Source: an uncultured Phycisphaeraceae bacterium | GTDB taxonomy: Bacteria; Planctomycetota; Phycisphaerae; UBA1845 | Length of the DNA: 59,594 nucleotides | Assembly: GCA_964416845.1 (NCBI GenBank) | Contig: CAYQFV010000003.1 | Span: 1 to 59,594 of the forward strand | Direction of reading: 5' to 3' | Shown: piece by piece, positions 31,714-49,315 of the stretch | Layout of the letters: each line of letters starts with the position of its first letter | Position numbering within the stretch: position 1 is the first letter of the stretch | Translations under genes and position numbers: made by a program | The notes under the pieces: generated by a model | The model's input: the letters and a program-made list of their open reading frames with translations, nothing else | What the model was told of the DNA's origin: nothing | Database searches by the model: none

Positions 31714-32727
31714 TTACCGACGGCGGCGCGGTGATCGGCTGGTCTTGTGTTCCCTCGGCCGGGTGACGGGCGTTCGGCGCGTTTCGTGCGGATCAGGATA
31801 TGGCTGCGGAAGTGCGATCCACTCCCACAACGAGGCGAAATCAGCCTCTATCACGACGACAGCCTGATCGTCATGCCCCCACGTGGTCCGAACGGTGTGC
31901 ACGTTCCCAAGCCAATTGCTGAACAGGACGGCGAGGTCCGGTCGATCGTCGATCCGATGCCCAACGGTCAGTCGGCCAAAGCTGTCGAGTGGCAGGCTTC
32001 TGACATATACGGCCAACCGTTGACGAGCGTCGAGGCGAGCTCGGTTGGACGCGATCAACTTGCCGGCCACGCTGCCACGACGCGACGACGGTGGTCGCCC
32101 ATGCCCAGTCACTCGGTACACTTGGCTGGCCCATTCGGGACGGCCAACGAATCGCCGCCTGTCAGGCTGCGGCACGTCGCGGAGCATCGGCAGGCCTTGG
32201 CCGATGACCACGATGGAGTCGATGTCGTTCAGGGCCGCGATCCGATTGAAATCGTGCCCACCGAACCGACCGTCACCATAACGGACGTTCAGTTGCTTGA
32301 GCCCGGCGATCACGTCTTTGATGGAGACTTTCACTCGGACGGTGCAGATTCGATTGATTGTGTATCGCGGCTTGGACACCGCAACCCCGCCCAAGCGGTC
32401 CCACATCGCCGCTTCAATGTTCGGATTCGATCGAATGAACGTCTCGACGTGCACCCCGTGTCCCATTTGCAAAGATTCGATTCGCCTCGCGAGCCGGCCC
32501 ATCGCGTCCCGCTGGGCAGCTTCTGCGGCGCTGACATAGACGTGCTCAGCGAACCCCTCCCACCCAGGAGCAGGGAGACGACGCGTCGAGGGGGTTGGCG
32601 GATGCTTTGGTCTGCGTTTGCGCTCGCGCTGAGCCGACGCAGGCACGCTCGTCAGCAGCACTGCCACCACGAGCGCTGCGAAGCTTCGGAACGCCCAGCC
32701 GCCGGGCCCGCGCGTCCCACTCATCAT
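31714..32727 (-). CDS. Secreted protein with two LPP20-like repeats
   Basis: Signal peptide; repeats AQRDAMGRLARRI and ARLDARQRLAVYV. Confidence 0.55.
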   Translation of the reverse strand: MMSGTRGPGGWAFRSFAALVVAVLLTSVPASAQRERKRRPKHPPTPSTRRLPAPGWEGFAEHVYVSAAEAAQRDAMGRLARRIESLQMGHGVHVETFIRSNPNIEAAMWDRLGGVAVSKPRYTINRICTVRVKVSIKDVIAGLKQLNVRYGDGRFGGHDFNRIAALNDIDSIVVIGQGLPMLRDVPQPDRRRFVGRPEWASQVYRVTGHGRPPSSRRGSVAGKLIASNRARLDARQRLAVYVRSLPLDSFGRLTVGHRIDDRPDLAVLFSNWLGNVHTVRTTWGHDDQAVVVIEADFASLWEWIALPQPYPDPHETRRTPVTRPREHKTSRSPRRRR

Positions 32728-32866
32728 GAACGAAGTCTGGGGACGCTCGCCACCGACTTCGACACAGCGGCATTGGTATTGCGTTGTAGCGTGGCGATTG
32801 CTGATGGAGCAGTTCATGCGAATCCTCTCAAACCGGATCGAACAGTCCGCAACGATGTCACGGACG

Positions 32867-34171
32867 TCAATCTGTTCCGCGAGCTTCGATCGTCATCTGC
32901 GCGTGCAGTGCCCCCCAGACGGCCGGCCCGCTCACCGAAAGCGACACCGTCGCCGACGAATCGTCGAAATCGCGTTGCTCGACGACCGAATCCACGACCA
33001 GAGCGCGAACTTGCGATTTTAACTCCCGACGCGATGCGAAGTACCGTTTGACCGACATTGTTGGCGTTAGCGGCAACTCGCCCAAACGGTCAAACAGGCG
33101 CTCGCGCGCGTCCCTTGTAGCAGCCCGTACCGCTCGGACACGTCCATCGCGTGACCCGATCGCGTCGTCGACAGATCGGCCGATTGCGCGGATTCTCTCG
33201 CCAGCCCAATCGGGACTGTCAACGCCCGAGAGGCTCGAAGCAGTGGACATGACCCGCACTGCCGGAGCTCCCGTCCCGGTGGCCTCGACCATCGAGCCAG
33301 CGAAACACTTCGATACCTGCTCGATGTCTTCAACCGTCGCACGATGACCACGATAGAAGCGTTTGTAGAGCTTGAGCATCAAATTGCTGGCTTGCTTCAC
33401 TGGAATCGACACCGTCACATCCACCAACAATTCGTTGTGATGAAAATATCGCCGCGATTCCTTCGCGCCCAAGACGAGGCGATCGGCGTGGTCGGCGAGG
33501 CTGACTTCCTCCGCCAACAGGTCGCCGAACAGCATGCTCGAGTTGATTCGCACGCACATCAGCCGCTCGAGCAGTCTACGCCGAGCATCGAGACGGGCCA
33601 TGCGAATCGCCGCCAGTTTGTCCCGCGCGGAAACCGGCCGCCAAATGTCCGGGTAGGCATACGGACGCGTCGTCGGGACGGCGGCGCCGATGATGTCCTC
33701 GATACCTTGAGGTAATTCCGGGTGAAGTTCGGCCCGAGGAGCACCGGCACCAACGATCGACAATAAGTCTTTGCCAAAACGGACTCCAAGCTTGTCAAAA
33801 TCGGACCTCAGGATTTGGCCCCCCTTGTGGTGGCGCTGAAACACCGACCGAAGTTCCGCAACAATCTTCGACATGGGGACACTCGCCGAGACCTCGCACG
33901 TGCCGTCGTCATGAAACGTGGCAGGCCCGACCTCGACGTGTTTGACGAAGGCATCGATTTCCGACTTGATGGCCCCACATTCGCTCGCGAAGTCATGAAC
34001 GAAAACCCCGGGGCGAATCTCGATCCCGTTGATCGTCGCGCACAGTTTGCGATAGCAATCCGCCTCGGCGTCTCGCCTTGCCAGCAATTGCGACTGATCA
34101 CCCGACTGACCCGCAGCGCTCACCGCCAAGGTCAGCACTGCGAAACACGTGCGCTTTCTTAAGTGGATCAT
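32867..34171 (-). CDS. Secreted protein with three LPP20-like repeats
   Basis: Signal peptide; repeats AEADCYRKL, ARLDARRRLLERL, ATRDARERLFDRL. Confidence 0.55.
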   Translation of the reverse strand: MIHLRKRTCFAVLTLAVSAAGQSGDQSQLLARRDAEADCYRKLCATINGIEIRPGVFVHDFASECGAIKSEIDAFVKHVEVGPATFHDDGTCEVSASVPMSKIVAELRSVFQRHHKGGQILRSDFDKLGVRFGKDLLSIVGAGAPRAELHPELPQGIEDIIGAAVPTTRPYAYPDIWRPVSARDKLAAIRMARLDARRRLLERLMCVRINSSMLFGDLLAEEVSLADHADRLVLGAKESRRYFHHNELLVDVTVSIPVKQASNLMLKLYKRFYRGHRATVEDIEQVSKCFAGSMVEATGTGAPAVRVMSTASSLSGVDSPDWAGERIRAIGRSVDDAIGSRDGRVRAVRAATRDARERLFDRLGELPLTPTMSVKRYFASRRELKSQVRALVVDSVVEQRDFDDSSATVSLSVSGPAVWGALHAQMTIEARGTD

Positions 34172-34521
34172 GTTCCCACTGTCTCCCCGGCCCGATCGCG
34201 AAACCATAATCTATCGGCGCCAAAAACTCCAGATCGTCGCGGCCGCACAAGGCCAGAATTATACCATTCCCGGCTGCCGTGTGACTGTTGCGTGCACAAG
34301 TTTGGCTTTAGATCGTCCAACCCGCCAGCCCAAAACCGGCCAAGGTTGGGCGTCTACCGCAAACCTGCCCGCCGCCGCCTCGCGGTGACTGGCATCGGTT
34401 GTTCGGAACGGCCACATGGTGACGTTCGATCCGCTGACGGCGTGCCCAGGCCGTGACGGGCGTTGACACCGGCGTCGTCTCGCCCTAACACATAGTCGGT
34501 TCGCGTGCGCCGATACGCTCA

Positions 34522-35733
34522 ATGATTCCGAGAAGAACAACACGACAGGTCGTCGTCGGAGGGATTCCCATCGGCGGCGGTGCGCCGGTCACGATCCAAT
34601 CCATGACCAGCACGCAGACGCATGCCATCGACGAGACCGTCGCACAGGTACGGTCGCTCGCAGAGGCTGGCTGCGATCTTGTCCGCGTCGCCGTTCCGCA
34701 GAAGCGAGACACCCAGGCCCTTCCCGCGATCATCGAACAATCCCCCGTTCCCATCATCGCCGACGTGCACTTTCACTATGAGCGAGCAATCGAAGCCATC
34801 GAAGCAGGCGCTCACAAAATCAGGCTCAACCCCGGCAACATCCCAGACCGAGGCCAGGTCGACCGCGTCATCGCCGCGTGTCGCGAGCGCAGTATCCCGA
34901 TCCGCGTCGGCGTCAATGAAGGAAGCGTCGTCGAACGAAAGGACAAATCCCGTCGGGCATCGCAACAGGCAGCCATCGCTCAAAACCCGCGCGACGAGTT
35001 GGTCGCCCTGATGGTCGACACGCTCGAAGACTACCTTCGCATCTTCGACGAGAACAACTTCCACGACGTCGTCCTTAGCCTCAAGAGCATCGACGCGACC
35101 ATCGTCATCGACGCGTATCGCGCCGCCGCCGAGCGATTCGACCTGCCCCTGCACCTCGGGTTGACTCACGCGGGACCGCCCGAGACCGGAACCGTTCGAT
35201 CCATCGCCGCGCTCGGCGCACTGCTCGCGGGAGGAATCGGCGACACCATCCGCATCTCGTACGCTGCCGATCCCGTCCACGAAGTGGAGGACGCCAAGGA
35301 ACTGCTCTGCTCGCTTGGATTGCGCAATCGCGTGGAACCGGAGCTGATCGCCTGCCCCACCTGCGGGCGAATCGAAATCGACCTCATAAAGCTCGTCACC
35401 GACGTTCGCAAAAAGCTCACGACCATCAAGACGCCCGTCAAAGTCGCAGTCATGGGTTGCGTGGTCAACGGGCCCGGAGAGGCGGAAGGCGCCGACGTCG
35501 CTGTCTTCGCCGGCAAAGGCCGCGGAATCATCTACGTTCAAGGCAAACAGACCCGCACGGTGTCAGAGAGGGACATGCTCGACGCGCTCTATGAAGAATG
35601 CGTCGCATTCGCCGAGCGCGTCGAAAGCGGCCAAGCAACTCTCTCGTCCGTAGGAGTCAGCATAGTCCCACCCGACCCGCTCCCGCGCGCCGACGGCTCT
35701 CTGCCGCTAACCGTCCTTCCTCGAGCGAACTAG
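34522..35733 (+). CDS. ispG: (E)-4-hydroxy-3-methylbut-2-enyl-diphosphate synthase
   Basis: IQSMT, ADVHF, RLNPGN, IRVGVNEGS, GIGDTIRIS, ACPTCGR, VMGCVVNGPGE. Confidence 0.96.
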   Translation: MIPRRTTRQVVVGGIPIGGGAPVTIQSMTSTQTHAIDETVAQVRSLAEAGCDLVRVAVPQKRDTQALPAIIEQSPVPIIADVHFHYERAIEAIEAGAHKIRLNPGNIPDRGQVDRVIAACRERSIPIRVGVNEGSVVERKDKSRRASQQAAIAQNPRDELVALMVDTLEDYLRIFDENNFHDVVLSLKSIDATIVIDAYRAAAERFDLPLHLGLTHAGPPETGTVRSIAALGALLAGGIGDTIRISYAADPVHEVEDAKELLCSLGLRNRVEPELIACPTCGRIEIDLIKLVTDVRKKLTTIKTPVKVAVMGCVVNGPGEAEGADVAVFAGKGRGIIYVQGKQTRTVSERDMLDALYEECVAFAERVESGQATLSSVGVSIVPPDPLPRADGSLPLTVLPRAN

Positions 35734-35776: not shown

Positions 35777-37396
35777 TTAGTGTATAGGCCAGTCTGCGTG
35801 CGACCAGTAGAACGCCCAGTTCGGGCCACGGTGGACGGTGGCAAAGTACGTGAGGATCGCAAACCCGACCAGAAAGCACGTGAACAACGCGACCGCACCC
35901 ATCCGCGTCGAGTTGGTCGTCTTGACCACCAAGACCGACCAGCACGCGAACAAGAATACGAAGACGGTTCCCGGATTGAAGAGCGTGATGACAATCTGAG
36001 GGACGTTCGCGGTCGCAGACCAGTTTCGGAGCCACCCGAAGTTGACCGTGAAGCACAGCATGCCAACCACAGTTGCCGCGCTGAAGAGCAAGCTCCACAG
36101 AGCGACACGCCTGCCTCGTCGGCCGCTAAACCAGACACCGACGTCCTCGGGTTCACGATCCAAGTAAGGTACGAGTGCCAAGCCGAGAACCACGATCGCG
36201 GGGATGCCCACTCCTCCCATGAAAGCGGAATAGGAAACCAACTCCTGCAAGCCCAGGAAGTACCATGGCGCCTTGGCCGGGTTCTCCGGTACAGCCGCGT
36301 CGGCCATCTCCTTCAGCGGCGCGTCGAAGAATGCGCCAAGCAGGAGCATGGCGAGTACCGTGAACATCGTGGCTGTCGTAATGACGTACAACACGCCCGG
36401 CCAAGTCGGAATTGTGTTGCGCATCTCTCGATTCACCTGCGGGGTGGAACCCTTCATCAGCCCCATCAACCCGTAAGTCTTGATGGATGTCGCGCGTCCT
36501 GCTGCATCCGAGCCTGCCGAATCCAACACGGGAGTGTCAGCCGCAACGGCATCGTCGGCCGACTTCGGGCGCGTGAGCCCGCCGTCTTTTCGAATACGCC
36601 AAAAATGCACGCCGATCAAGATTGTCGTAATGACTGGCAGAACTATAACGTGGAGGACGTAGAACCGAATGAGCGCCTCTTGCCCGACGTAGTGCGAGCC
36701 CAGCAGCAGTTCCTTCTGGATGCGCCCAATGTGGAAATACTGTGTGATACCGAGCGCGTCGGTCAGTTCCTGCGGCGATTGAGCGATGTTGGCGCCGATC
36801 GTGACCGCCCAATATGCGAGCTGGTCCCAGGGGAGTAGGTAACCGGTGAAGCTCAGCGCCAGCGTAATGACGAAGAGCGCCATTCCTATGACCCAGTTGA
36901 ATTGCCGTGGCTTCTTGTACGCGGCGGTGTAGAACGCTCTGGCCATGTGCAGAATAACGCAGGCAACCATCGCGTGTGCTGACCAGCGGTGTACGTTACG
37001 AATGAAGCGGCCAGTGGGAACGACGTAAATGATGTCCAGCATCGAGGTGTAAGCCTGATCGACCGACGGCTTGTAATACACCATGAGCAAAACGCCTGTA
37101 ATGCAAAGAATGACGAACAAGACGAAGGTGGCCACTCCCAACCCGAAGGTCGTTGTCGCCTTGATCGCATGGAGGTGGGTTCGCGTCGGAAGGACGTGCA
37201 GAAAGAAATTCGTGAAGATAGTTTGCGATCTGGCGCGATCCGACGTCGGACGTCCGTGTCGGATCACCGAGTCACGAAAGGCGCGCGGGGTTGTAGCGAT
37301 ATTGCGAACGAACTCGCGCAACGCCGGCCGATCGCGAGTCGAATCAGACTGCGGGGCGGCGGATTCGGAAAGCTCGTCTTGTTTCGATTTCTTCAT
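35777..37396 (-). CDS. Cytochrome b subunit of a Rieske/cytb complex (b6-like part fused to subunit IV-like part)
   Basis: Heme His pairs HRWSAH...LH and LH...VH; GYLLPWDQLAYWA; PAKAPWYFLGLQEL in the C-terminal part. Confidence 0.92.
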   Translation of the reverse strand: MKKSKQDELSESAAPQSDSTRDRPALREFVRNIATTPRAFRDSVIRHGRPTSDRARSQTIFTNFFLHVLPTRTHLHAIKATTTFGLGVATFVLFVILCITGVLLMVYYKPSVDQAYTSMLDIIYVVPTGRFIRNVHRWSAHAMVACVILHMARAFYTAAYKKPRQFNWVIGMALFVITLALSFTGYLLPWDQLAYWAVTIGANIAQSPQELTDALGITQYFHIGRIQKELLLGSHYVGQEALIRFYVLHVIVLPVITTILIGVHFWRIRKDGGLTRPKSADDAVAADTPVLDSAGSDAAGRATSIKTYGLMGLMKGSTPQVNREMRNTIPTWPGVLYVITTATMFTVLAMLLLGAFFDAPLKEMADAAVPENPAKAPWYFLGLQELVSYSAFMGGVGIPAIVVLGLALVPYLDREPEDVGVWFSGRRGRRVALWSLLFSAATVVGMLCFTVNFGWLRNWSATANVPQIVITLFNPGTVFVFLFACWSVLVVKTTNSTRMGAVALFTCFLVGFAILTYFATVHRGPNWAFYWSHADWPIH

Positions 37397-37437
37397 ATCA
37401 GTTTCAACTCAAGCACCGTTTCTGCGTGGCTTGGGAC

Positions 37438-37923
37438 TCAAGCTTCAAAGATCGAACCTTCCTTGACTTCCTTCAAGGTGTCTGCGACAAGCGATCCTTC
37501 CGGCGAAACGCTCAGATCGGCCCAGATTAGTCCCTTTGGGGCAGGACCGCCGGTTACCAGTCCGTTGGCGTCGAACCTCGATCCGTGGCAAGGGCACTTG
37601 AACGTGCCATCTTCAGCCCGGTTCGTGATGCAGCCCAAATGGGTGCAAACGGCGGAGATGGCGTGAAACCCTTCGTCACTGCGGAACAGCCAAAGGTGCG
37701 GGGATGGGAAGTACGTGGCGGAACCAATGGCGAATTGGTCCGGACGCCCGAGCTTCACCTTCGAGTCGGATTCGGGGAACACCGAGGGCATTGGCAGTCG
37801 CAATGCCCCCATAATGGCCATGACAAACGCGACGACGGTCGTCCACGCCGCCGCCAACCCCAGGAAATCGCGCCGCGTTGCCGGCGGCTTGAATCGTTCA
37901 CTTTGCTCGATCGTTGATTGCAT
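37438..37923 (-). CDS. Rieske 2Fe-2S subunit
   Basis: Tat-like RRDFL plus TM helix; CTHLGC and CPCHGS. Confidence 0.95.
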   Translation of the reverse strand: MQSTIEQSERFKPPATRRDFLGLAAAWTTVVAFVMAIMGALRLPMPSVFPESDSKVKLGRPDQFAIGSATYFPSPHLWLFRSDEGFHAISAVCTHLGCITNRAEDGTFKCPCHGSRFDANGLVTGGPAPKGLIWADLSVSPEGSLVADTLKEVKEGSIFEA

Positions 37924-37931
37924 CGGTTCTC

Positions 37932-39872
37932 TCATCCCGCAGCGGCTGTATTCTTGCCGCCGACTCCAGTCCACTCACCAGAAAAGCTGAACCGCTCCAT
38001 GGTGATCGCACCCACGGGACACCGTTCGGCACACAGTGCACAGCGGATGCACTTCTGCTCGTCCTTGATGATCGCGCCTTGAGAGGAAAGGTCCGCGTCT
38101 CCGTATCGGTCGCGCAGCAACTCGGCCAGGTCGGGGACGCTGGCCAGGCGGTCGCACGACACAAGTTGTAAACAGAGTTCAGGGCAGACGTCGGCACAGC
38201 CCCCACAAAGGATACATACTTCGGAATCAAATATGGTGTTAACGCCGCAGTCCAAACAACGACATGCCTCGGCAACTGCAGATGCCTCGCCGTATCCGCA
38301 CTCAACAGCTTTCGCATGGTCGGTATGGCGTTCCAAAGGAGATATCTTCGGAATCGGCGTGCGCGGAACCTTCTCATAGTCCTTTTCACGGGAATACCCG
38401 GGAATACCCAGATGAACGAAGGTGTGTCGTTCGCCGAGCGGCTGACCCGTCAGGTACGTGTGAACACTTCGTGCGCACTTCTTCCCGCTCGCCACCGCGT
38501 CGATCAGCAGGCGAGGTCCGTACGCTATATCACCTGCAAGGAACACGTCCGGCGCGCCTGTTTGAAGCGTATTCGTATCGCAAGGCAACACGCCGCGGTC
38601 GTTCGGTTCCAAGTCATCGCAGTCGCTCAGGAACGACAGATCAGCCTGCTGGCCAATGGCCCAGACCACCGTATCCACGTCGAGCGTCACACGATCATCA
38701 TCGTCGAACTGAGGCGCGAAGCGGCGATTCTCATCGAACACTCGCAAACATCGCTTGAACACCGCGCCGCGAACCGCGCCGTCCGGCGTCCGCAGAATCT
38801 CGACAGGCCCCAACGATGGATGGAGTTCGACGCCCTCTTCGTGGCCTTCAAGGATCTCAATGTCGTCGGCAGGCATTTCCTCAATGCTTTCGAGGCAACA
38901 GAGATGAACCTCACTGACATTCGCTTGCCGAAGCGCACTGCGGGACACGTCGTGGCCAACCTGGCGGATGACGGTTCTGGAAATGTCGTATGCAACATTG
39001 CCTCCGCCAATGACCACGACGCGCTGGCCGAGCTGCGAGAACGTCGATGCAGGACTTCGGTTGTACAACGCGGTGTCGCGAAGAAACTCTACGCCGCCAA
39101 AGACACCCGGGCCTTTGCCTCCCGGGATGGGAATCTCTCGCGACCGCTTTGCGCCCACGGCGATGATCGTGGCGACGTGGCTCTTGCGGATGTCGGCCAA
39201 CGAAACGTCACGACCGACTTGCGTATTGCATAAGAACTCCACGCCCAGGGCCCGGATGAGTTCGACTTCCGCTTCGATCAGATCACGTGGAAGTCGGTAT
39301 TCCGGAATGCCGACCGCCAACATCCCAGCGGGAACCGGTTCCATCTCCAACACAACCGGGCGATACCCCAGCAGTGCCAAGTCGTGGGCGGCAGCAAGGC
39401 CCGCCGGCCCGGATCCGATGATCGCAATCCTCGGCCCCGTCGGTTTCTCCTGGCCTATTCCTTGAAGCGTACTCCGTAAAGCGTGCAACTCCTCCATTCC
39501 GCTACATTCACGTCCCGGAGACGCGCGGATAATTCTCTTAAGCAGATCAATGACCTTAATCGCGCCCTTGGTGTCTGACTTCGGGCTGAATCGCTCTGCG
39601 ACGAATCGCTTCAGCGCACGAATGGACACCGCCTCGTCGATAGCGCCACGGCGGCAGGCGGCTTCACACGGAGCGCCGCACACACGTCCACATATACTCG
39701 CGAGCGGATTCGGGCCACGAGCGATCAGGTATGCGCCCTCAAAGTCACCATTAGCAATCGCCCGCACGTAACCTCGCGCGTCAGTGTGGACCGGGCAGGC
39801 GTATTGGCATTTGATCTGCCGCTGCCAATATTCATCATCCGGAACTTCGACGTTAACAGGAGAATAATCCAT
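37932..39872 (-). CDS. FAD/NAD(P)-binding oxidoreductase with multiple 4Fe-4S clusters (GltD/NfnB-like plus ferredoxin)
   Basis: CQYACPVH, CGRVCGAPCEAAC, GSGPAG, GGGNVA, EACRCLDC, CILCGGCADVCP, CIRCALCAERCP; no signal peptide. Confidence 0.88.
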   Translation of the reverse strand: MDYSPVNVEVPDDEYWQRQIKCQYACPVHTDARGYVRAIANGDFEGAYLIARGPNPLASICGRVCGAPCEAACRRGAIDEAVSIRALKRFVAERFSPKSDTKGAIKVIDLLKRIIRASPGRECSGMEELHALRSTLQGIGQEKPTGPRIAIIGSGPAGLAAAHDLALLGYRPVVLEMEPVPAGMLAVGIPEYRLPRDLIEAEVELIRALGVEFLCNTQVGRDVSLADIRKSHVATIIAVGAKRSREIPIPGGKGPGVFGGVEFLRDTALYNRSPASTFSQLGQRVVVIGGGNVAYDISRTVIRQVGHDVSRSALRQANVSEVHLCCLESIEEMPADDIEILEGHEEGVELHPSLGPVEILRTPDGAVRGAVFKRCLRVFDENRRFAPQFDDDDRVTLDVDTVVWAIGQQADLSFLSDCDDLEPNDRGVLPCDTNTLQTGAPDVFLAGDIAYGPRLLIDAVASGKKCARSVHTYLTGQPLGERHTFVHLGIPGYSREKDYEKVPRTPIPKISPLERHTDHAKAVECGYGEASAVAEACRCLDCGVNTIFDSEVCILCGGCADVCPELCLQLVSCDRLASVPDLAELLRDRYGDADLSSQGAIIKDEQKCIRCALCAERCPVGAITMERFSFSGEWTGVGGKNTAAAG

Positions 39873-39905
39873 ACGGGTCACCGTGCGCCTAGCTGACAAG
39901 CATTC

Positions 39906-41600
39906 CTATTTCCTGTTCTTCGCAGAAGGTTCCGGTAAGCCTGCGAGCGTACGAACATAGTGTACGAGTTGCCACACTTCGTTGTCGCTGAGGGCTTTTT
40001 GCGCCGGCATCGGCGTGCCCGGAATGCCGACCCGAATCCGCTTGAAGACGTCTTCCGGCTTGTCTCCGCCAGGGAAATAGCCAGTGGTGAGATCCCACGC
40101 CTTAATGCTCCGGCCGCGGTCGTCTACCAACTCCTGCGGACCGTCGCCCTTCCCCTTGTCACCGTGGCAGGACGCGCAGTTGGTCTTATAGAGCTTCGCG
40201 CCAACGGCGGGATCCGGCCGGAACGCAGAGCCAGGCCACGGAACCAGTATGATTCCCTTTGGAGTCAAACGCTTTTCCGCAATTTCCTCGATATCCTCAG
40301 GGGTGACATCGTCGTCATCCGAGAACGCCTCCGTCAGTTTTGCGATTGTGCCTTCCCGATTAATCTCGCGAATATACTTCGCCACAGCCAGCACCTCATC
40401 TTCGGTAAGCTGCGGATTGGACGGCATCTCGCCAAACCGCCGCCCTGTACTGATCGTTCGGACCAAGTCCTCTTGGGTCGGCACACCGTTAATCGCGGAA
40501 ACGTATCGGAACCGCTCATGCCAAAAGTCGCGAGGCTGCCCCTTGATGGTTGCCGCCGCAGGCCCGTTCCCGAGTCCCTTGCCACCGTGACACGCCCCGC
40601 AGAACATTTTGTACAGCGTTTCGCCGCTGGCGAGCGCTGCGTCTTCGTCTATCCGCGGTGGACGCGGCATATGTGTCGCGGGGGCATTCTTTCGATGAAA
40701 GCTCATCATGTACAATGCCAGTGTGCGAGCTTCCTGCGGGGTAAAGCCCATCTTCGGCATCACCGTTCCCGGCGACACCGTTGACGGCGACAGAAAGTGC
40801 TCATAAAGCCATTCCTGCACAGTGTGCTCGCCTTCAACGTGCGTGAAATCGTAATCGTGAGTTCTCTTGTCACCGACGTAGGTCAGGTCCGCGCCAAGAT
40901 CACCACCACCACCACGGTATCGGTGGCAGCCGAGACACCCATTCTCAACCACCAGGCGTTTCCCCTTTACAAGCACTTCGGCCCCCGGAAGCGAAAGCGC
41001 GAGGACCGCCTTCGTGATGCGCGGCTTCGCGACGTCCGGCGCCCCGGCCTGGAAGGAGAAAGCGTACAGATCCGACTGCCCGCCATAAAGGTCGACTTCG
41101 TAGTGGCAGCGCCCACAACTTGTATAGACTGTTGCGTCCCGGAGTAGTGGAGTCATGACATTGGGAACCGGTACGTCGTTGGCGTCCCAACCGTGGGCGG
41201 ATTCCGCCGTGATGGCCCGCCCCTCTCCCTGGTGACAAATCGTACACCCAAACTTCTCCAGAGGGTGGTGCTTGAGTAGATCACCGGGATGTGCCGACAG
41301 TGGCGTCGCAGCGCTCGTCATCTTTGGATTGGCCACCCCCAGATGGCAAGTCGTACAACGATCGATACGCCTCAATTCAGGCAAGAACACCTGTCGGATG
41401 GAAACGTCGAAGGAGGCCGCCGATCGCCTATCACGCTCGGTGTCCGCATCGGCTCGCAGAAGTCGTTGGTACGATCGTTGAAATGCCCGCCAGTGGCCTG
41501 AGTAGTTCTCGCGATAGGCCTCCACCGCCAACACGGCAATCGAGGACGCCGACGCGAACAGCAAGGCCGTCTTCATCATACGCAGTGGATTGCGATCCAT
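39906..41600 (-). CDS. Membrane-anchored hexaheme cytochrome c
   Basis: Six CxxCH (CTTCH, CTICH, CGRCH, CLGCH, CGACH, CASCH); N-terminal hydrophobic anchor. Confidence 0.9.
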   Translation of the reverse strand: MDRNPLRMMKTALLFASASSIAVLAVEAYRENYSGHWRAFQRSYQRLLRADADTERDRRSAASFDVSIRQVFLPELRRIDRCTTCHLGVANPKMTSAATPLSAHPGDLLKHHPLEKFGCTICHQGEGRAITAESAHGWDANDVPVPNVMTPLLRDATVYTSCGRCHYEVDLYGGQSDLYAFSFQAGAPDVAKPRITKAVLALSLPGAEVLVKGKRLVVENGCLGCHRYRGGGGDLGADLTYVGDKRTHDYDFTHVEGEHTVQEWLYEHFLSPSTVSPGTVMPKMGFTPQEARTLALYMMSFHRKNAPATHMPRPPRIDEDAALASGETLYKMFCGACHGGKGLGNGPAAATIKGQPRDFWHERFRYVSAINGVPTQEDLVRTISTGRRFGEMPSNPQLTEDEVLAVAKYIREINREGTIAKLTEAFSDDDDVTPEDIEEIAEKRLTPKGIILVPWPGSAFRPDPAVGAKLYKTNCASCHGDKGKGDGPQELVDDRGRSIKAWDLTTGYFPGGDKPEDVFKRIRVGIPGTPMPAQKALSDNEVWQLVHYVRTLAGLPEPSAKNRK

Positions 41601-41937
41601 TGAACAGTTCTTCCTCGCTACTCATTCCTCACGTGCGAAGACGTACGATCCTCTGACCGCGATTCGCTCATGATTCCCAAAGTAGCGCGCGCCCGCCTCG
41701 GCCAAGAGAGCGGAATCCCGACTAGCGTGCGCCCACACCTGAGCCCACATGGTATTTCTACTCAATGTGCGCAGCTCCGCTCTTAGCATTTCCTCACACG
41801 CCGCCTCGAAACGAAGCATCACCCGACCCGGTACCGGCACCATTGCCGTCTATCAGGCAACGGCCTGTACGGTTGTCGCCCGCACTGAACAACGGCGACG
41901 CGATCCGCCCGCCATCGCATTCATCGTTTGCAAATCG

Positions 41938-42168
41938 TTACTCGTTGATCACTTCCGGCCCGGACTCATCGTGCTCGGCAGGCGCTTCCTCATGCTCTCC
42001 ATTGAGGAAGAACAAAGTGTCACAATTGAAGATATTGCACGTGTTCTCAGCGAAGAACGCATTCGGATCGCGTAACAAGGCTTCACACCCGGGGAGCAAG
42101 ATTCCTCCAACAGCAAAAGCAACGCTCGCCAAACCGCCGAGAAAAGCGTGCAACCGATTACGTTTCAT
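41938..42168 (-). CDS. Small lipoprotein (76 aa) with C-x4-C motif
   Basis: GGAG RBS; lipobox-like LLPGC; NTCNIFNCDTLFF; paralogous to the neighbouring ORF. Confidence 0.7.
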   Translation of the reverse strand: MKRNRLHAFLGGLASVAFAVGGILLPGCEALLRDPNAFFAENTCNIFNCDTLFFLNGEHEEAPAEHDESGPEVINE

Positions 42169-42235
42169 GATTCGTGACTCCGGGAAGCCAATGCTATGGA
42201 GAAAATACGACGCGATGGCAGTCAGGACCACATCG

Positions 42236-42472
42236 CTAGTGTCCACCCCCGCCACCGCCTTCATCAGCGGAAGCAACGTCCGCATCCATCGTCGGGCGTG
42301 TCGACAACGGCAGAAGGTCTTCCACGAAGAAGAGGACGTCGCAATTTAGGAACTCGCAGGCGTTGCGGCTCGCAAACTTGAGCGGGTTAAAACTACATCC
42401 CGGTGCGAAAGCGATGCCGCACAACACAGTGATCAAGACAACCGCAGTTTCCCTAATTGATCGGATTCGCAT
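42236..42472 (-). CDS. Small lipoprotein (78 aa) with C-x4-C motif
   Basis: GGAG RBS; lipobox-like FAPGC; NACEFLNCDVLFF; paralogous to the neighbouring ORF. Confidence 0.7.
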   Translation of the reverse strand: MRIRSIRETAVVLITVLCGIAFAPGCSFNPLKFASRNACEFLNCDVLFFVEDLLPLSTRPTMDADVASADEGGGGGGH

Positions 42473-42532
42473 ATCTCTGAATACTCCAAGGATGGTCGCA
42501 TCACGCCGACCAGGATGTCTGTTTCCGATCCT

Positions 42533-42865
42533 TCAGTTGGCGGACTTCAAGAACTTCAGGATTTTTCGGTGCTCCTCTGCCGTAAGGTTTCCCCGCACGC
42601 GCATGTGAAGCGCGATCACGTCCCATTCTCGATCGCTGCGCTCGCTCGGGTCGCGAAGATTGTGACACCGCGCACAATTCTGGCGCCAGAGCAACGCTCC
42701 GCCGCGGTCCGGACCGTCCGAATCGGCGGCGACGGCGGTCGACGTGCCACCGCCATCCGCCGTCGTCACTTTCGCGGAACTCAGCGTCTTCTGACATCCG
42801 CCAGATACTGCGGAAATCGCCGCCGCACCCGCAAAGGCAAGTAGCGCCAATAGTCTTGTATTCAT
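42533..42865 (-). CDS. Monoheme cytochrome c lipoprotein
   Basis: Lipobox-like SGGC; single CARCH; HMR as possible distal ligand. Confidence 0.8.
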   Translation of the reverse strand: MNTRLLALLAFAGAAAISAVSGGCQKTLSSAKVTTADGGGTSTAVAADSDGPDRGGALLWRQNCARCHNLRDPSERSDREWDVIALHMRVRGNLTAEEHRKILKFLKSAN

Positions 42866-42892
42866 CGCCTTCTCCACAGCGAGGATTCCATA

Positions 42893-44278
42893 TCAGAATC
42901 CAATGGCAAATTGCATGAAGAATCCGTCTTCATTGTCGTCACCACGCACGTTGTCGTGCGTGTAAGTGGCCTTCCAAACGATGTTCGGACGGATCCAGTA
43001 ATCGAGCCCGAATGTCAACCGCTCACGATCCGCACCGCGGGTTGTGGGGCCGGATTCGCGTACCTGATCATAGCGAACAACGAATTCGACGTTCTTGAGG
43101 TCAATGCTATCGCCGAGCGTGAAGCTTGTGAGTGTCGGCCGGTACGCCCCTTGCACGAACCATCCGTTGCGCTTGTTGTTGAACGTGAACGGATCGAATG
43201 GCCCGGTAAAGACGAACTTGTCGGTGTCCACCCACATGGCCTCCCCTCGGAAGTCCAATCGGCCTTTGATGGCCTCGATCTCGCGTGCGTAACTGAAGTC
43301 AACGCCCTGAATAAGCGTATCAACGCCCCGGGACGCCGAACCGCTGTCACCGACTCTCCCGGTCAGAAAAGAATATCCGACTTCCAACTCCGGTATTGGC
43401 AAGAATCCGACTCTGCCGCCAAACGTCTTGTCGTTGTTGTTGTCACGGAAGTTCTCGAACCCGAGTTTTCCTGCGGAGGCAAACGCCGTGTCGTCGAAGT
43501 TCGGACCGTTCACATAGTATGTGGCATAGTTGAACTTCGTGTCGCCAACCGCAAACCCACCGCGCAACTGGACACCGAGCCCCGTTTCTCCCATCAGTCC
43601 GCGCTCATAGATGAGCGGCATGGTGGTCGTCTTGTTGATCCACGGCGGATGCCACCGCTCCCAAAACGTACCGAACGGTATCAGAAACTTGCCCGCGCCG
43701 ATAGTCATGTAGTCGTTGAGCAAGTAACTGAGCTGGAACTGCCCGAGTTCGACTTCGGTCTCTTCGTCGTCCAGTGCGAGCTCGATTTGCGTCTCGAGCA
43801 ACAGCCTGTCGATCGGCTTCCACAAAAGAATCGGAGCAATGGCAGCGCCGAATGTTGAATCTATATTGTCGCGATCCTGAAACGTCACGACTGCCGATCC
43901 GCCGAGCGCAAAGTTCGTCATGCCCGGCAGCAAAGGTTCCGTCACGTCGGTCAACTCCTCCCGCATGTCTTGAAGGATGGACTCGCGCTGACGTAACGCA
44001 AACGCGTCAAATCTCGCCTGCCAGTCTTCCGGCGATGTGTCGCCCACACTGGTCTTGAGTTCCGTAAGTTCCTTGCGAAGTTTTTCGTTCTCTTGCTTGA
44101 GCTGCACATACTCGCCTCGGAACTGCTGATACTCCTTCAGGAACTTCTCGAATTCGCGCCGTGTCAATGGTGCATCGCCGGCGGAATCCTGCTGCGCGAC
44201 GAGAGTCGACACTGGACCCGCGATGCACAGGAAAGCCAGTGCAAACAACCCGAATCGTGACGCATGGAGAGTTTTCAT
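42893..44278 (-). CDS. Outer-membrane beta-barrel (porin) with N-terminal coiled coil
   Basis: Signal peptide, heptad-rich segment, alternating beta-strand pattern, terminal FMQFAIGF. Confidence 0.8.
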   Translation of the reverse strand: MKTLHASRFGLFALAFLCIAGPVSTLVAQQDSAGDAPLTRREFEKFLKEYQQFRGEYVQLKQENEKLRKELTELKTSVGDTSPEDWQARFDAFALRQRESILQDMREELTDVTEPLLPGMTNFALGGSAVVTFQDRDNIDSTFGAAIAPILLWKPIDRLLLETQIELALDDEETEVELGQFQLSYLLNDYMTIGAGKFLIPFGTFWERWHPPWINKTTTMPLIYERGLMGETGLGVQLRGGFAVGDTKFNYATYYVNGPNFDDTAFASAGKLGFENFRDNNNDKTFGGRVGFLPIPELEVGYSFLTGRVGDSGSASRGVDTLIQGVDFSYAREIEAIKGRLDFRGEAMWVDTDKFVFTGPFDPFTFNNKRNGWFVQGAYRPTLTSFTLGDSIDLKNVEFVVRYDQVRESGPTTRGADRERLTFGLDYWIRPNIVWKATYTHDNVRGDDNEDGFFMQFAIGF

Positions 44279-44333
44279 ACCATCATCCAGGCCGGGACCC
44301 GCTCGTAGTGCTGGGTCGGTTTCAGTGCTCTGC

Positions 44334-45071
44334 CTATTTTTGCTTTAGAGTGAATTCGACGCGAACCTCGCCGCCGGCGGTCACCGTGACGTTGGCCTTT
44401 TGCTTGCCAAGCTTCTCTTGCCATATCACCACCGTGTACGTACCCGCCGGAACGTTTTCGAAACGAAACGTTCCGTCTGCACCGGTCACGGCGTAATACG
44501 GGTTCTTGGCAACCACAACCCAACTTGACATCCATGGGTGAATGTCGCAGCCAACGTGAATACGCTCGGTGTAGTCGAAGGTAACATCCAACTTCTTCAT
44601 CCCTCCCGGCATGGACCGGTTGAACGGTTCGTTCTTCTTTGCATAGAGATGAACGTTGTGGAGTATTCCGTCACTGTTCAGAATATTCAGTGGTTCCCCT
44701 TGTGGTACGACGACGATGTGTGGAGAGAATTGGCAACCGTGCTGGTTAAGAATAGCTGGGTTGTCCGCATCGATACTAAAGGGCTTGCCGTGAGCGATCT
44801 TTTTAATGTACGCAACAACCCAGCGGACTTTGGCATCGGCGGAAACGACGAGGTCTTCATTTTGAATAGGCTTGACGTGACAAGGTTTATCCTGTCCGGC
44901 CACAGTAAGCGTACGCTGTTTGGGAATCGCGCCTTCCCAGTTGACCACACCCACAATTGTTCCGCCGTTTTTGACCTCCATCGGTTTGTACTTGGCAGCG
45001 GCCGGACGGGCTGAAAAACACACAACCGCCAGGCATGTCAGCACGGCGAAGGACTGATTTCTAGTTTGCAC
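44334..45071 (-). CDS. Periplasmic cupredoxin-like protein with carboxypeptidase-regulatory-like domain
   Basis: HNVH...CDIHPWM type-1 copper ligand pattern; TGADGTFRFENVPAGTYTVVIW module. Confidence 0.75.
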   Translation of the reverse strand: MQTRNQSFAVLTCLAVVCFSARPAAAKYKPMEVKNGGTIVGVVNWEGAIPKQRTLTVAGQDKPCHVKPIQNEDLVVSADAKVRWVVAYIKKIAHGKPFSIDADNPAILNQHGCQFSPHIVVVPQGEPLNILNSDGILHNVHLYAKKNEPFNRSMPGGMKKLDVTFDYTERIHVGCDIHPWMSSWVVVAKNPYYAVTGADGTFRFENVPAGTYTVVIWQEKLGKQKANVTVTAGGEVRVEFTLKQK

Positions 45072-45115
45072 TCTGTAGCTCCAATCGTTCTCTTAGTGTT
45101 TCTGGGATCGCTGCA

Positions 45116-45973
45116 TCACACTTGCCCGGCCAAGAAACGCACGTAGTAGACGAGTTGCCAGACTTGTTCGTCGCTCAGGGCGACGGCCGCCGACATCGGC
45201 GTGCCAGGAACGCCGCAACGAATCCGCTTGAAGACTTCCTCCACGGTGGTCCCGCCCCGAAACTCGCCGGACGTCAAATCTCGGACACTGATGGGCTTGC
45301 CTTGTTCATCGAGAGGTTTGGCGAGTCCGTCACCGCGTCCAGTCAAGCCGTGGCAAGACGCACAGTTCGCCGCGTACAGCTTGCGACCCGCTTCAGTGTC
45401 GCGTTGAAACTCAGATCCTGGTCGTGTCACGTGGATCGCACCGCGCGGCTTGACACGAATGTGCGATATCTCTTCGATCTCCTCCTCCGACGTGTCGTCA
45501 TCGTCGGAGAACTCTTCACGCAGATCGTCAAGCCAGCCGAGGCGTTGGATCTCTCTGACGTAATCGGCGAGCACGCGGACTTCCGCATCGGTGAGTTGCG
45601 GACCCGCGGGCATCTGACCGTAGCGCCGACCGTTCCGGATCGAGTCGCTCAAGTCCTCATCGGTCGGCACTCCATTCAGCGTCGAGACGTAACGGAATCG
45701 CTCGTGCCGGAAGTCTCGGGGTGCAACGTCAAGCGCGATCGCAGCTGGCCCTCGCCCCGTTCCAGTATCGCCGTGGCAGGGCGCGCAGTGCGCGGTGAAG
45801 AGCTCGTGGCCTTTCAACGTAGCGACCGCTTCGGTAGTGACCGCGTCGGTGGTGGCCATGGATGCTGTCGAGGCAGGGGCTCGGCACGCCGTTTGGCTGA
45901 ACGCTACCCCGCACGCCAAACCCAAAGCTGCGGTCACCACAACTCCGCCACATGTCACCTTCATTGGGATCAT
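45116..45973 (-). CDS. Periplasmic diheme cytochrome c
   Basis: CAPCH and CASCH with distal Met motifs GQMP and GTPM; signal-like N-terminus. Confidence 0.88.
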   Translation of the reverse strand: MIPMKVTCGGVVVTAALGLACGVAFSQTACRAPASTASMATTDAVTTEAVATLKGHELFTAHCAPCHGDTGTGRGPAAIALDVAPRDFRHERFRYVSTLNGVPTDEDLSDSIRNGRRYGQMPAGPQLTDAEVRVLADYVREIQRLGWLDDLREEFSDDDDTSEEEIEEISHIRVKPRGAIHVTRPGSEFQRDTEAGRKLYAANCASCHGLTGRGDGLAKPLDEQGKPISVRDLTSGEFRGGTTVEEVFKRIRCGVPGTPMSAAVALSDEQVWQLVYYVRFLAGQV

Positions 45974-46057
45974 CTCCGTGTCATCGCTCAAATGTTCTGC
46001 AACGACATTCGACCGGTTCGCCTGCAAAGAGCGCGCGAGCGCTATTTGACAGGGCCA

Positions 46058-46073
46058 TGCACGCGTAGCGCCA
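46058..46073 (-). promoter_or_regulatory. Sigma54 -24/-12 promoter candidate for the redox cluster
   Basis: Minus strand TGGCGCTACGCGTGCA has exact GG-N10-GC spacing; next to a sigma54 activator gene. Confidence 0.55.
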
Positions 46074-46318
46074 GTGAAAAGATCGAGCCGGTCCTACTTC
46101 GACATAAACTCCGTTTTTGACTAGGCTTGCGGGCGAGACACGATCGACGGGTCGTTTCGCAAAAATGAGAAACTGTCGCTGCGTTTCGCAAGTCTGCAAC
46201 GCCCGTGGCTTGAAACGGGCATGCAGGATACGATGCGGTTGGTGCGAATCTGCCTCGCACGCCGCGGCGACAGCCATGCGAGCGGGAGATTTCGGCGTCC
46301 CGTCAATTCTGCCGAGGA

Positions 46319-47944
46319 GTGAGACTCGTGAAGACCACGCGTACACACGCACTGAACATCCGCCGGATCGTCGGTGGGACGCTCATGCTCGTGTGTTTCG
46401 GCGCCAATGTGCTCGCTGTGATCTATGTCACGCGGGAACACAAACTGATCGAGGACACCATCTCGGAGACGACGTCGGACCACGGGGTAGCGTGGGCACG
46501 GCTTTGCGCCGTCGAGATGCAAAGTGGAGGTGTTGCGGGTCTTCAGCGCCTGATTGACGCGATCGGACAGAGCCGCGGCGTTCGCCTTGCCATGGTCGTG
46601 GGCAACTCCGGGCGGGTCGTTGCTGCGACGGACCCGTCGCAAGTCGGTCGGGTGCATCGCATCGATCACGACGCCATCGCCGAAGACCAGCCGTCAGAAG
46701 CGCACCACGTAGAAGAACTCGGGCCGTCGCCTACGGGTTTCTTTCATGAGGAAGGACACACCTTCCAATTCGTCTTCCCCATTCGCAACGACGGAAAAGA
46801 CTACGGCGAACTCATATTGGATGTGAATACCGCCTGGGGCAACCTGCAGGCGAAAGCGCTGGCGCTGAAAGGCTTGGCGCTTGTCTTTGCCGTGACCTTG
46901 CTGATAGGGTTGGCAGCGTGGGCTCTCGACTGGCGATTGCGTAAGGCTGTCAAAGCCCTCATCGCCGCAACCCGAGCCATCGCCAAGGGCGAGCGAACCT
47001 TCGACGTCGAGGTCGGAACCGGCGACGAATTGGACATTCTGGGAGATAGCGTCAAGCAACTCGCCGAGGCGCTTCAAGACACCGAGGAGAGAGTGGCACA
47101 CTGGCATCGAGAACTTGAATCCACAATCGCCAACCGAACTGCACAGCTCGAAGAGTCGCAACAGCTTCTTGCCGAACGCGAAAAGATGGCCGCGCTGGGG
47201 TTGATGGCCGCGGGCATCGTGCACGAGATCGGAAACCCTCTAACTGCGATGTCGGCGATCGTCCAGCGAATACAGCTTAAAGCCAATGCGGCGCTTGGAG
47301 AAAAGTGCGGCGTGTTGGTCGAGCAGATCGATCGGATCTCAAGAATTGTCGACGACATGCGCCAAGTGGCGAGGCCGGTGTCCGCCAGAGGTTATTCGAC
47401 GAACGTCAATGAGACGCTGCGCATCGCCATCAAGGTGACGCAATACGACCCCCGGTCGAAGATGGTGAAGATTAGCACCGAGCTTGCGAACGAGGTTCCC
47501 CGAGTATCGGGCAATGCCGACCGATGGCAGCAAGTCTTCATCAACCTGATCATCAATGCGTTGGACGCCATGCCCGACGGAGGACAGCTAACCGTTTCGA
47601 CTTCTGTTTCCGGCGAGCTTGTGATCATTTCTTTTCGCGATACCGGCAGTGGCATGACGCCCGATCAGATCAGGAACCTGTATCACCCTTTCTTTACGAC
47701 AAAGGCGAGCGGGGGGATGGGATTGGGACTGTCGGTTTGCAATAGCATCGTACGGAGCTACGGAGGCGACATCGCGGTAACAAGTCAACTCGGATCGGGT
47801 ACCGAGTTTCGGATTACCCTCCCACCATACGAGGAGCGGCCCCGTTCGGCCACGTATCCGAAGACCGGTGTTCACGACGACGAGGTTCCCGACGCGACGT
47901 TTGACCCGAAGTTGCTTCACGCCCCACGGAAAGCGACACCGTAG
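46319..47944 (+). CDS. Sensor histidine kinase (2 TM, HAMP, HisKA, HATPase)
   Basis: GIVHEIGNPL, VFINLIINALDA, DTGSG, PFFTTK, GMGLGLSV. Confidence 0.93.
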   Translation: MRLVKTTRTHALNIRRIVGGTLMLVCFGANVLAVIYVTREHKLIEDTISETTSDHGVAWARLCAVEMQSGGVAGLQRLIDAIGQSRGVRLAMVVGNSGRVVAATDPSQVGRVHRIDHDAIAEDQPSEAHHVEELGPSPTGFFHEEGHTFQFVFPIRNDGKDYGELILDVNTAWGNLQAKALALKGLALVFAVTLLIGLAAWALDWRLRKAVKALIAATRAIAKGERTFDVEVGTGDELDILGDSVKQLAEALQDTEERVAHWHRELESTIANRTAQLEESQQLLAEREKMAALGLMAAGIVHEIGNPLTAMSAIVQRIQLKANAALGEKCGVLVEQIDRISRIVDDMRQVARPVSARGYSTNVNETLRIAIKVTQYDPRSKMVKISTELANEVPRVSGNADRWQQVFINLIINALDAMPDGGQLTVSTSVSGELVIISFRDTGSGMTPDQIRNLYHPFFTTKASGGMGLGLSVCNSIVRSYGGDIAVTSQLGSGTEFRITLPPYEERPRSATYPKTGVHDDEVPDATFDPKLLHAPRKATP

Positions 47945-47947
47945 CTC

Positions 47948-49315
47948 ATGTCTGCCACCATCTTGATCGTTGAAGACGAGCGCGCCATTCGGGAAGAGTT
48001 GGCCGATTTCCTCCGCGAGGAGGGGTTCTCGTGTGTTCTGGCTTCCAATGGCCAAGAGGGTATTGCGTGCGTCGATGGTCGCGACCTTGACGTGGTCCTC
48101 CTCGATGTCCGCCTTCCGGACATGTGTGGCATTGATGTGCTGGCCCGCTTGAGAGCACTTGCCCCCGAATCGCACGTCTTCATCATGACAGCACATCCAT
48201 CGGTCGATACGGTCGTCTCGGCGCTCAGGCTGGGCGCCATCGACTACGTGACCAAGCCGCTCATCCTCGAGGACTTACTACAGAAAATCAGACGATCGAT
48301 CGAATTCCGTGCTCAGCAAATGGAAATCCGCTGGTATCGTCAGCAATTGCAAATCGAATACGGTTTCTCGAACATCATTGGCAAGTCTCAAGCAATGAAG
48401 GATGTATTCACCCTGGTCCAACGCGTCGCTTCGACCGAATCACCGGTCCTCGTCACCGGCGAAAGCGGAACAGGCAAAGAACTGATTGCCAACGCGATTC
48501 ACCATAACGGAACCCGGAGAGATGCACGCCTCATCCCACTCAACTGTGCGGCGATTCCGGCGGCGTTGCTCGAATCTCAGATGTTCGGACACCTGAAAGG
48601 AGCGTTCACGGGTGCAGATGTGCGAACTGCAGGCCTGTTCGCAGCCGCCAGCGGTGGGACACTGCTTCTTGACGAAATCGGCGAGTTGCCACTGGAGCTT
48701 CAGCCCAAGCTGCTTCGAGCGGTAGAGCAGCAGAGCGTTCTCCCCGTCGGTGCGACCGAGCCGGTGAGCATTGACACGCGCATCATCGCGTCGACGAATA
48801 CCGATCTTCAGCAGGCTGTAAAGGACGGCCGCTTTCGGGCCGACTTATTCTACCGGCTCGCCATCGTGACCATCGAGATTCCGCCGTTACGCGACAGAGT
48901 CGAAGACATCCCCGCGCTCGTTGAACGGTTCGTCGCCAAGCTGAACACGAAGTTGCGAAAGAACTTCCGTGGCGTATCGAATGCGGCACTCGGACACCTG
49001 CTGCGATACCGTTGGCCTGGCAATGTGCGAGAGCTGCAGAATGTCATTGAGCGGGCCATGATCCTACAAGATGGCGATTTGATCACGCCTTCGGCACTGC
49101 CGTCAAGCTTGCTCGAACGGCCCCATCCGGACCGCGTCGTCGGACCGCTGAAAGCCGCCGTCCATGAGTTTGAAAAAGAATACATCAACCGTATTCTCCA
49201 AGTAACGAATGGAGACAAGCAACTTGCAGCCGAGTTGCTTGGCGTCAGCGTGAGCTCGATCTATCGCAGACTTCAAGCCATCGAAGACGAAACCGGTGAA
49301 TTCGGGCACAACTGA
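47948..49315 (+). CDS. Sigma54-dependent response regulator (NtrC family)
   Basis: Receiver (VEDE, LDVRLP, KP); AAA+ ([29 protein letters not shown]); C-terminal HTH. Confidence 0.95.

Follow-up and report, generated by a model that had tools for sequence, protein, structure and literature searches.

Of all the components of respiratory chains and outer-membrane electron-transfer systems, small proteins are the least well understood. Small lipoproteins that partner specific beta-barrels are familiar from LptE and LptM, which act with LptD, and from RcsF, which acts with OmpA/OmpC, some of them threading or plugging the barrel. In Acidithiobacillus ferrooxidans, electrons from an outer-membrane oxidase travel by way of a blue-copper protein, a c4 cytochrome and a bc1 complex, and cupredoxin-fold and P19-type copper and iron proteins work in the periplasm beside cytochromes in the Ftr/P19 and EfeUOB systems. 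Among the products of the Geobacter extHIJKLMNOPQS genes are cytochromes, a Rieske/cytochrome b unit, the porin-like ExtI, whose similarity to phosphate porins is weak, and ExtJ, a small protein with no assigned function (PMC5877670, PMC6148476). PcuC has a Met/His-rich disordered C-terminal extension that binds Cu2+/Cu+ and donates to CoxB, and the extensions of PCuAC proteins show an enrichment of about 2-fold for Met and 4-fold for His (PMC6669012). Anammox Rieske/cytochrome b complexes have been proposed as sources of NAD(P)H (PMC12954380). Here we describe two adjacent tiny genes, open reading frames (ORFs) A and B, on the minus strand at 41938-42472 of a 59,594-nt stretch of DNA (referred to as the window) from an uncultured Phycisphaeraceae bacterium, which derives from a microbial mat metagenome. 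They share features with several of these systems and, as set out below, belong to a small-protein family of their own.

We propose, with a probability of roughly 45%, that A and B are a dedicated lipid-anchored accessory pair of an envelope redox module, in which the core of each protein docks and the tail binds a metal, most likely copper. Both would be exported by the general secretory (Sec) pathway, very probably lipid-anchored and probably heterodimeric, and the module that they would serve, in Phycisphaerae-like Planctomycetota, consists of a c4 cytochrome, an amicyanin-like cupredoxin, an OprO/P-like porin and a monoheme cytochrome c lipoprotein. A core of ~25 residues would lie directly behind the lipidated Cys, with its two Cys most likely forming a small periplasmic disulfide loop, and this Cys-loop/D-x-L-F-F core would serve for docking, by joining A to B and/or holding both on the porin/cytochrome assembly at the membrane surface. 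The disordered tail (Asp/His/Met-rich in A, Gly-rich with Met and His in B, usually with an H-x-H end) would be a flexible metal-binding arm, holding copper for the blue-copper proteins of the module or, alternatively, a metal substrate. The preliminary description of the locus, made from the sequence alone, gave coordinates and peptides for the two genes that we found to be exact; their parts are as follows.

42236..42472, minus strand: ORF B, 78 aa; signal peptide, APGC lipobox-like Cys26, core KFASRNACEFLNCDVLFFVEDLLPLS, tail ending in ADEGGGGGGH
42326..42358, minus strand: invariant core of ORF B, C-E-F-L-N-C-D-V-L-F-F
42484..42487, minus strand: GGAG ribosome-binding site of ORF B, 11 nt 5´ of the ATG, read directly from the sequence
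41938..42168, minus strand: ORF A, 76 aa; signal peptide, LPGC lipobox-like Cys28, core FFAENTCNIFNCDTLFFL, acidic tail with two His, EHEEAPAEHDESGPEVINE
42007..42039, minus strand: invariant core of ORF A, C-N-I-F-N-C-D-T-L-F-F, that is C-x4-C followed by D-x-L-F-F
42178..42181, minus strand: GGAG ribosome-binding site of ORF A, 9 nt 5´ of the ATG, read directly from the sequence

ORF A and ORF B are real, selected genes. They are paralogs (pairwise BLASTP E=4e-7) with a common N-x-C-x3-N-C-[DE]-x-L-F-F core, just as the preliminary description had suggested from their shared motif, and the GGAG sites it had pointed out precede both. Word-indexed searches returned 13 relatives of ORF A and 15 of ORF B. 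The same description had recommended a motif-profile search of metagenomes with a check of the neighborhoods, and such searches did find homologs, in conserved context: searched against 1.84 billion proteins, a 37-column core profile matched 33 representatives at 50% identity, 32 of which are 60-160 aa long and carry the motif (the remaining one, P0058, is a spurious repeat protein), and a profile search of metagenomes and metagenome-assembled genomes (MAGs) yielded 142 proteins among 90%-identity clusters. Wherever source names were given, all were Phycisphaerae, Planctomycetes or Planctomycetota, and the samples came from a microbial mat and from marine sediment. Only four loci turned up in 185,579 scanned species genomes, all in Planctomycetota MAGs. 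Compared with orthologs, the proportion of differing sites was 0.55-0.88 at synonymous positions (pS), which are saturated, and 0.20-0.44 at nonsynonymous positions (pN). The ratio of nonsynonymous to synonymous substitution rates (dN/dS), given only where dS was computable, was 0.09-0.20 for ORF A and 0.15-0.30 for ORF B. The homolog clusters, the overall dN/dS of 0.09-0.30 and the conserved gene order thus bear out the earlier view that these are two genuine genes. The accompanying concern that annotation pipelines could miss them was misplaced, since NCBI and JGI records carry both as 'hypothetical protein'; they are unannotated in function, not missed.

No family had been recognized from the sequence, and none emerged here. 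Pfam and NCBIfam scans of ORF A, ORF B and 49 family members gave scattered sub-threshold matches only, the sole match in a PDB sequence profile search was to myosin-Vc (E=4, a chance match), and literature searches on Phycisphaerae turned up no account of this module. A and B represent a genuine, previously undescribed family of small proteins, narrow in distribution and sharply delimited by motif and context.

The start of ORF A is best read as the ATG at 42168, giving a 76-aa protein that begins MKRNRL, because the homologs all begin MKR or MRG and none matches the longer start at 42285. Longer versions of ORF A (ATG at 42285; public gene call P0001, 108 aa) have no counterpart among the homologs and would overlap the end of ORF B, and the P0001 start upstream of the conserved MKR (42169-42285, minus strand) is probably a start-codon error. 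We also noted that at position 42172, in the spacer between the ORF A GGAG and ATG, the assembler contig of the source run has C and the window has T. Other readings of the locus were set aside. An antisense ORF of 194 aa (41765-42349, plus strand) was rejected given that conservation tracks the minus-strand reading frames, and an RNA explanation was rejected given that an Rfam scan of 41000-43500 detected no RNA family. A six-frame motif scan found no third copy of the motif in the window, and a consensus scan found no terminator signal above chance inside the operon.

All members of the family have the same order of parts: a charged N-region (mean 3.4 Lys/Arg), a hydrophobic helix (modeled by AlphaFold2 over residues 3-21 or 3-22), a lipobox Cys, 4-16 residues and the core, [FY]-x3-N-x-C-x3-N-C-[DE]-x-L-F-F-[LIV]. 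Across 30 to 104 members, both core Cys are invariant, and the lipobox Cys, the two Asn and L-F-F vary little or not at all. The lipobox rule [LVI][ASTVI][GAS]-C (PROSITE PS51257-type) fits 105/112 B-type and 5/25 A-type proteins; 17 of the 25 A-type proteins, together with both window copies (LPGC and APGC), have a Pro at position -2, outside the strict rule. Lipidation of A and B is likely but not certain, because most A-type members and both window copies carry this Pro. The earlier characterization of the pair as lipoprotein-like, with C-x4-C and an acidic tail with His, consequently stands for the tails, which are acidic with His in both copies, and for the core Cys, which are invariant, and takes a caveat for the lipobox.

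Several features of the core suggest a docking element. In the A-type proteins of three loci (L006, L011 and L013) the lipobox Cys is merely 5-6 residues ahead of the core, as in C-x4-C-x4-C-D-x-L-F-F, and because this gap is so short, the indispensable part appears to be C-x4-C-[DE]-x-L-F-F at the membrane surface. At the position four residues ahead of the first core Cys, A carries Glu/Asp and B carries Arg/Lys, a charge swap that hints at a pseudo-symmetric heterodimer. AlphaFold2 models of ORF A and ORF B showed no tertiary fold, the Cys pair being preceded by nothing more than short helices and followed by a disordered tail, with a mean predicted local distance difference test (pLDDT) score of 59 for ORF B (104 sequences) and 58 for ORF A (30 sequences); in these models the behavior of the core fits a motif that becomes ordered on a partner. 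We infer docking from the lack of an autonomous fold, the minimal core, the charge swap between A and B and a cupredoxin fusion in L011 that is described below.

Familiar roles for a small Cys-containing envelope protein were also considered. A heme-binding protein was rejected for want of C-x2-C-H, as the core reads C-x4-C-[DE] and the second Cys is never followed by His, and an Fe-S protein was rejected given the Sec-type export and the missing twin-arginine (Tat) motif, which occurs in 0/28 A-type and 1/125 B-type proteins. The features of Sco and thioredoxin proteins are likewise missing, as the spacing is C-x4-C rather than C-x3-C or C-x2-C, there is no domain match and the protein is too small. 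It is very unlikely, in our estimate, that C-x4-C is a redox-active dithiol and that A and B are thiol-disulfide or heme-handling factors for maturation of the nearby c-type cytochromes. That both Cys are invariant in every member and that at least four c-type cytochrome genes lie nearby would fit such a role, which is countered by the C-x4-C rather than C-x2-C spacing and by a ~25-residue core that has no thioredoxin-like or CcmH-like domain and no Pfam or NCBIfam match; moreover, cytochrome maturation systems are general rather than module-specific, and the tails would be left unexplained.

The tails are the second element of the proposed role. A-type tails have 17-106 residues and contain 29% Asp, 13% Glu, 10% His and 5.6% Met, with frequent DDHDDMDM-like repeats; those of L006 (3937-4440) and L010 (2838-3266) reach about 100 residues of DDHDDM-type repeats. 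B-type tails are 22-46 residues long, start with [DE]-[LIM]-[LF]-P-L-S, contain 23.5% Gly, 5.1% His and 5.3% Met, and typically read ...GGGMVMDMGEAEDEGGGHAH. Against a background of 2.1% His and 2.3% Met in the long ORFs of the window, this amounts to a 2.4- to 4.8-fold enrichment for His and about 2.3-fold for Met. A His is found within the last three residues of 124/125 B-type proteins, in tails whose sequence is otherwise variable, and the tail ends in H-x-H in 94/125 B-type and 12/28 A-type proteins. Because the position of the terminal His is kept while the tail sequences vary, it argues for a functional terminal ligand. The window copies are modest examples of this composition.

Tails of this kind on small, Sec-exported, Cys-containing proteins also call to mind exported precursors of a modified metal-binding peptide, bufferin- or methanobactin-like in concept, of the ribosomally synthesized and post-translationally modified peptide (RiPP) type, and one member gave a very weak match (E=0.14) to the model of an SbtA-type thio(seleno)oxazole precursor. 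We consider this scarcely credible and rejected it: the Pfam lists contain no MNIO/DUF692, radical-SAM, cyclodehydratase or peptidase gene in any conserved neighborhood, leaving no modifying enzyme near the pair, and the lipobox suggests an anchored rather than a released protein.

Gene context supports assignment of A and B to a redox module. Among 18 fetched loci, about 14 of them distinct, the constant order is a divergent histidine kinase and sigma-54 response regulator, a c4 cytochrome, a cupredoxin-CarboxypepD_reg protein, a porin, a cytochrome c of 111-124 aa, B and A. Wherever a locus extends far enough, B is directly followed by A, and the porin and the small cytochrome c precede them. 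The small cytochrome c gene is directly upstream of B in all examined loci but L018, which has one extra gene between them. The window shows the common arrangement across 35777-49315, with the following genes and promoter-like element upstream of B.

42533..42877, minus strand: monoheme cytochrome c lipoprotein, 114 aa; SGGC lipobox, flexible linker, CARCH, Met in HMRVR
42893..44278, minus strand: outer-membrane porin-like protein, 461 aa; N-terminal coiled-coil segment, weak PF07396 Porin_O_P match
44334..45071, minus strand: amicyanin-like type-1 copper cupredoxin plus CarboxypepD_reg beta-sandwich, 245 aa; weak amicyanin match
45116..46027, minus strand: dihaem c4-type cytochrome c, first gene of the module
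46058..46073, minus strand: sigma-54-type promoter-like element TGGCGCTACGCGTGCA (GG-N10-GC), upstream of the module and the sole match in the window
46319..49315, plus strand: histidine kinase and sigma-54-dependent response regulator, divergently transcribed

The cupredoxin has an amicyanin ligand pattern, ILHNVH ... GCDIHPWM (C-x2-H-x2-M), with Pfam naming CarboxypepD_reg only, and is kept in 13/18 fetched loci at 47-70% identity. The true start of the c4 cytochrome is probably an internal ATG. The GG-N10-GC pattern is also present 5´ of the c4 gene in L001/L002 and L005, and the histidine kinase/response regulator pair is also present in L001, L012, L013 and L014. PDB sequence searches with the porin, the cupredoxin and the small cytochrome c were uninformative.

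The porin and small cytochrome c being invariant neighbors, A and B could instead be purely structural or assembly partners (plug, tether or folding aid) of the OprO/P-like barrel, their tails having no part in metal handling and acting just as spacers, or as acidic threads inside an anion-selective channel. The modeled core appears too small to fold alone, the porin has its weak Porin_O_P match, and Gly- or Asp-rich stretches serve as simple linkers in neighboring lipoproteins, all in keeping with such a partner. We nevertheless regard a purely structural role as doubtful. A plain spacer cannot explain the C-terminal His/H-x-H position in 124/125 B-type proteins or the Met/His enrichment, the LptM model matches 1/49 members with E=0.06-0.09, and in the fusion described next the partner is a cupredoxin, not a barrel protein.

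This fusion is in L011 (22-1119), where an A-type N-terminus (lipobox, CSPFTCDILNCDTLFF, acidic/His linker) is joined to a tandem cupredoxin with Pfam matches to Copper-bind and SoxE; P0057 appears to be the same A-core/cupredoxin fusion. In L014 (8311-9360) and L018 (3361-4371) the same tandem cupredoxin is a separate lipoprotein gene directly after A, and fused and separate versions are 67% identical over 300 residues. In L012 (10651-11895) and L004 (10428-11465) the gene directly after A encodes two PF10634 (P19/FetP-type Fe2+ transport) domains in a lipoprotein with a poly-Gly linker, a run of 17 Gly behind the lipobox. A Tll0287-like heme protein is encoded in L006, L014 and L018. The fusion and these neighbors show that the A core is tied to copper and iron proteins and that the tail can act as a tether. 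The preliminary description had offered metal binding, disulfide redox and assembly as candidate roles, among which the context favors metal handling. The inference of metal binding rests on the His/Met-enriched tails, the H-x-H ends, the amicyanin-type cupredoxin in the module and the PF10634 proteins after A in L012 and L004; copper would be the likeliest metal.

The genes downstream of ORF A in the window are listed here.

39906-41600, minus strand: multihaem cytochrome c, 564 aa
37932-39899, minus strand: GltD-like NAD(P)/FAD/iron-sulfur (FeS) flavoprotein, 655 aa
37438-37974, minus strand: Rieske protein
35777-37396, minus strand: cytochrome b, 539 aa

Against NCBIfam, the window cytochrome b gave 244 bits with the ExtP model and also matched ExtQ, both below cut-off. 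This set of multiheme cytochrome c, GltD-like flavoprotein, Rieske protein and cytochrome b is found 3´ of A in the window, L001-L003, L007 and L014, and L013 has a split cytochrome b version after A. Nothing related to it follows A in L012, L016 and L017, and the reading of A and B as subunits of a Rieske/cytochrome b complex was rejected on that account. Because the Rieske/cytochrome b set is frequent but not obligatory, the pair is tied to the porin/cytochrome c/cupredoxin part. Membership in a porin-cytochrome module, as earlier surmised, is thereby upheld by synteny in ~14 distinct loci, with the correction that the pair goes with the porin, small cytochrome c and cupredoxin, not with Rieske/cytochrome b. 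Beyond the cytochrome b gene, three sizeable ORFs (34519-35541, 32867-34207 and 31714-32817, all minus strand) have no Pfam match, and the first of these (34519-35541) has no NCBIfam match either.

The downstream genes and PF10634 proteins bear on another possibility, that the tails capture a metal substrate, binding Fe(II) that enters via the porin or keeping Fe(III) soluble, for a periplasmic iron-oxidizing chain running from cupredoxin/cytochromes c through Rieske/cytochrome b to NAD(P)H. The A-type tails of up to ~100 residues, with 29% Asp and 13% Glu, would suit this role, as would the P19/FetP-type domains that follow A in L012 and L004, the apparent parallel between the gene set (porin, small cytochrome c, blue-copper protein, c4 cytochrome and Rieske/cytochrome b) and the rus and petI operons of A. 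ferrooxidans, and the origin of the samples in microbial mat and marine sediment. We think it unlikely, given that family scans revealed no Cyc2, MtoA or other recognized iron oxidase among the module genes and that the B-type tails are Gly-rich, not acidic.

Several observations weigh against the proposal of a lipid-anchored, metal-binding accessory pair. Most A-type members have the atypical Pro at -2 of the lipobox. The window ORF A tail lacks a terminal H-x-H and has two His only and no Met, and the window ORF B tail has a single His, at its end. Pfam and NCBIfam scans detected no known copper-chaperone motif in A or B. Asp/Gly/His-rich stretches are plain post-lipobox linkers in neighboring lipoproteins of L012 and L014, and because of this a general preference of these organisms for such linkers could account for part of the tail composition. 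In L009 and L010 there is no amicyanin-like gene between c4 and porin, yet B (in L010 also A) is present. Finally, signal for the operon was absent from the sample's only RNA run, a tiny one of 15 million letters.

A bolder variant, which we judge quite improbable, is that the cores clamp the periplasmic face of the OprO/P-like porin while the tails thread the channel and display the terminal H-x-H at the cell surface, where it would capture extracellular copper or iron and pass the metal or its electrons to the tethered cytochrome c and the cupredoxins. If true, this would constitute a minimal metal/electron uptake conduit without a multiheme or Cyc2-type outer-membrane cytochrome. The family, recognizable by its invariant motif and by its strict pairing and gene context, marks an undescribed envelope redox module in uncultured Planctomycetota. 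If the pair is a metal-handling or docking subunit, it offers a handle on the assembly and substrate of the module, and its motif becomes an easy sequence tag by which to detect the module in metagenomes. Both proteins are short enough to synthesize, making their metal binding and disulfide state directly testable.

Set against known systems, A and B lack, as judged from their sequences, the hallmarks of PCuAC, Sco, c-type cytochromes, LptM, Tat cofactor proteins and MNIO-type RiPPs. With LptE, LptM and RcsF they have in common that a small protein, in their own case a probably lipid-anchored one, is encoded with, or acts on, a specific beta-barrel. To our knowledge, none of these three has His/Met/Asp-rich tails or forms a paralogous pair, and there is no sequence relationship to LptM, as the single match of LptM_cons among the 49 members is sub-threshold (E=0.086 in Pfam, E=0.057 in NCBIfam). 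We know of no A/B-like small proteins in the Ftr/P19, EfeUOB or rus/petI systems, and, unlike these, the module encodes no Ftr1/EfeU permease and no Cyc2. The downstream genes of the window, which join Rieske protein, cytochrome b, multiheme cytochrome c and GltD-like NAD(P)/FeS flavoprotein, resemble the anammox complexes; the likeness concerns the neighbors and not A and B, the host here is Phycisphaerae-like and the pair occurs without the complex. PCuAC/PcuC proteins likewise carry a disordered tail at the C-terminus, in which His and Met are enriched by factors similar to those in A and B. Unlike them, A and B lack the core H(M)x10Mx21HxM, with no Pfam or NCBIfam match in 49 members; they are lipobox proteins whose ordered part would be just the ~25-residue Cys-loop, and their presumed target is type-1 copper, not CuA. 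By analogy of gene content, the ext cluster of Geobacter sulfurreducens is the closest system-level parallel, and the window cytochrome b matches the ExtP/ExtQ models. A, B and the porin match no Ext model in NCBIfam, and the window-type module differs by the presence of cupredoxins and of an NAD(P) flavoprotein and by the lack of a rhodanese and of a selenoprotein cytochrome. ExtJ (GSU2938) is by its description set apart from A and B, being a single 104-aa protein described as periplasmic, whereas A and B are two paralogs of ~75-90 aa with a C-x4-C/LFF core and metal-type tails.

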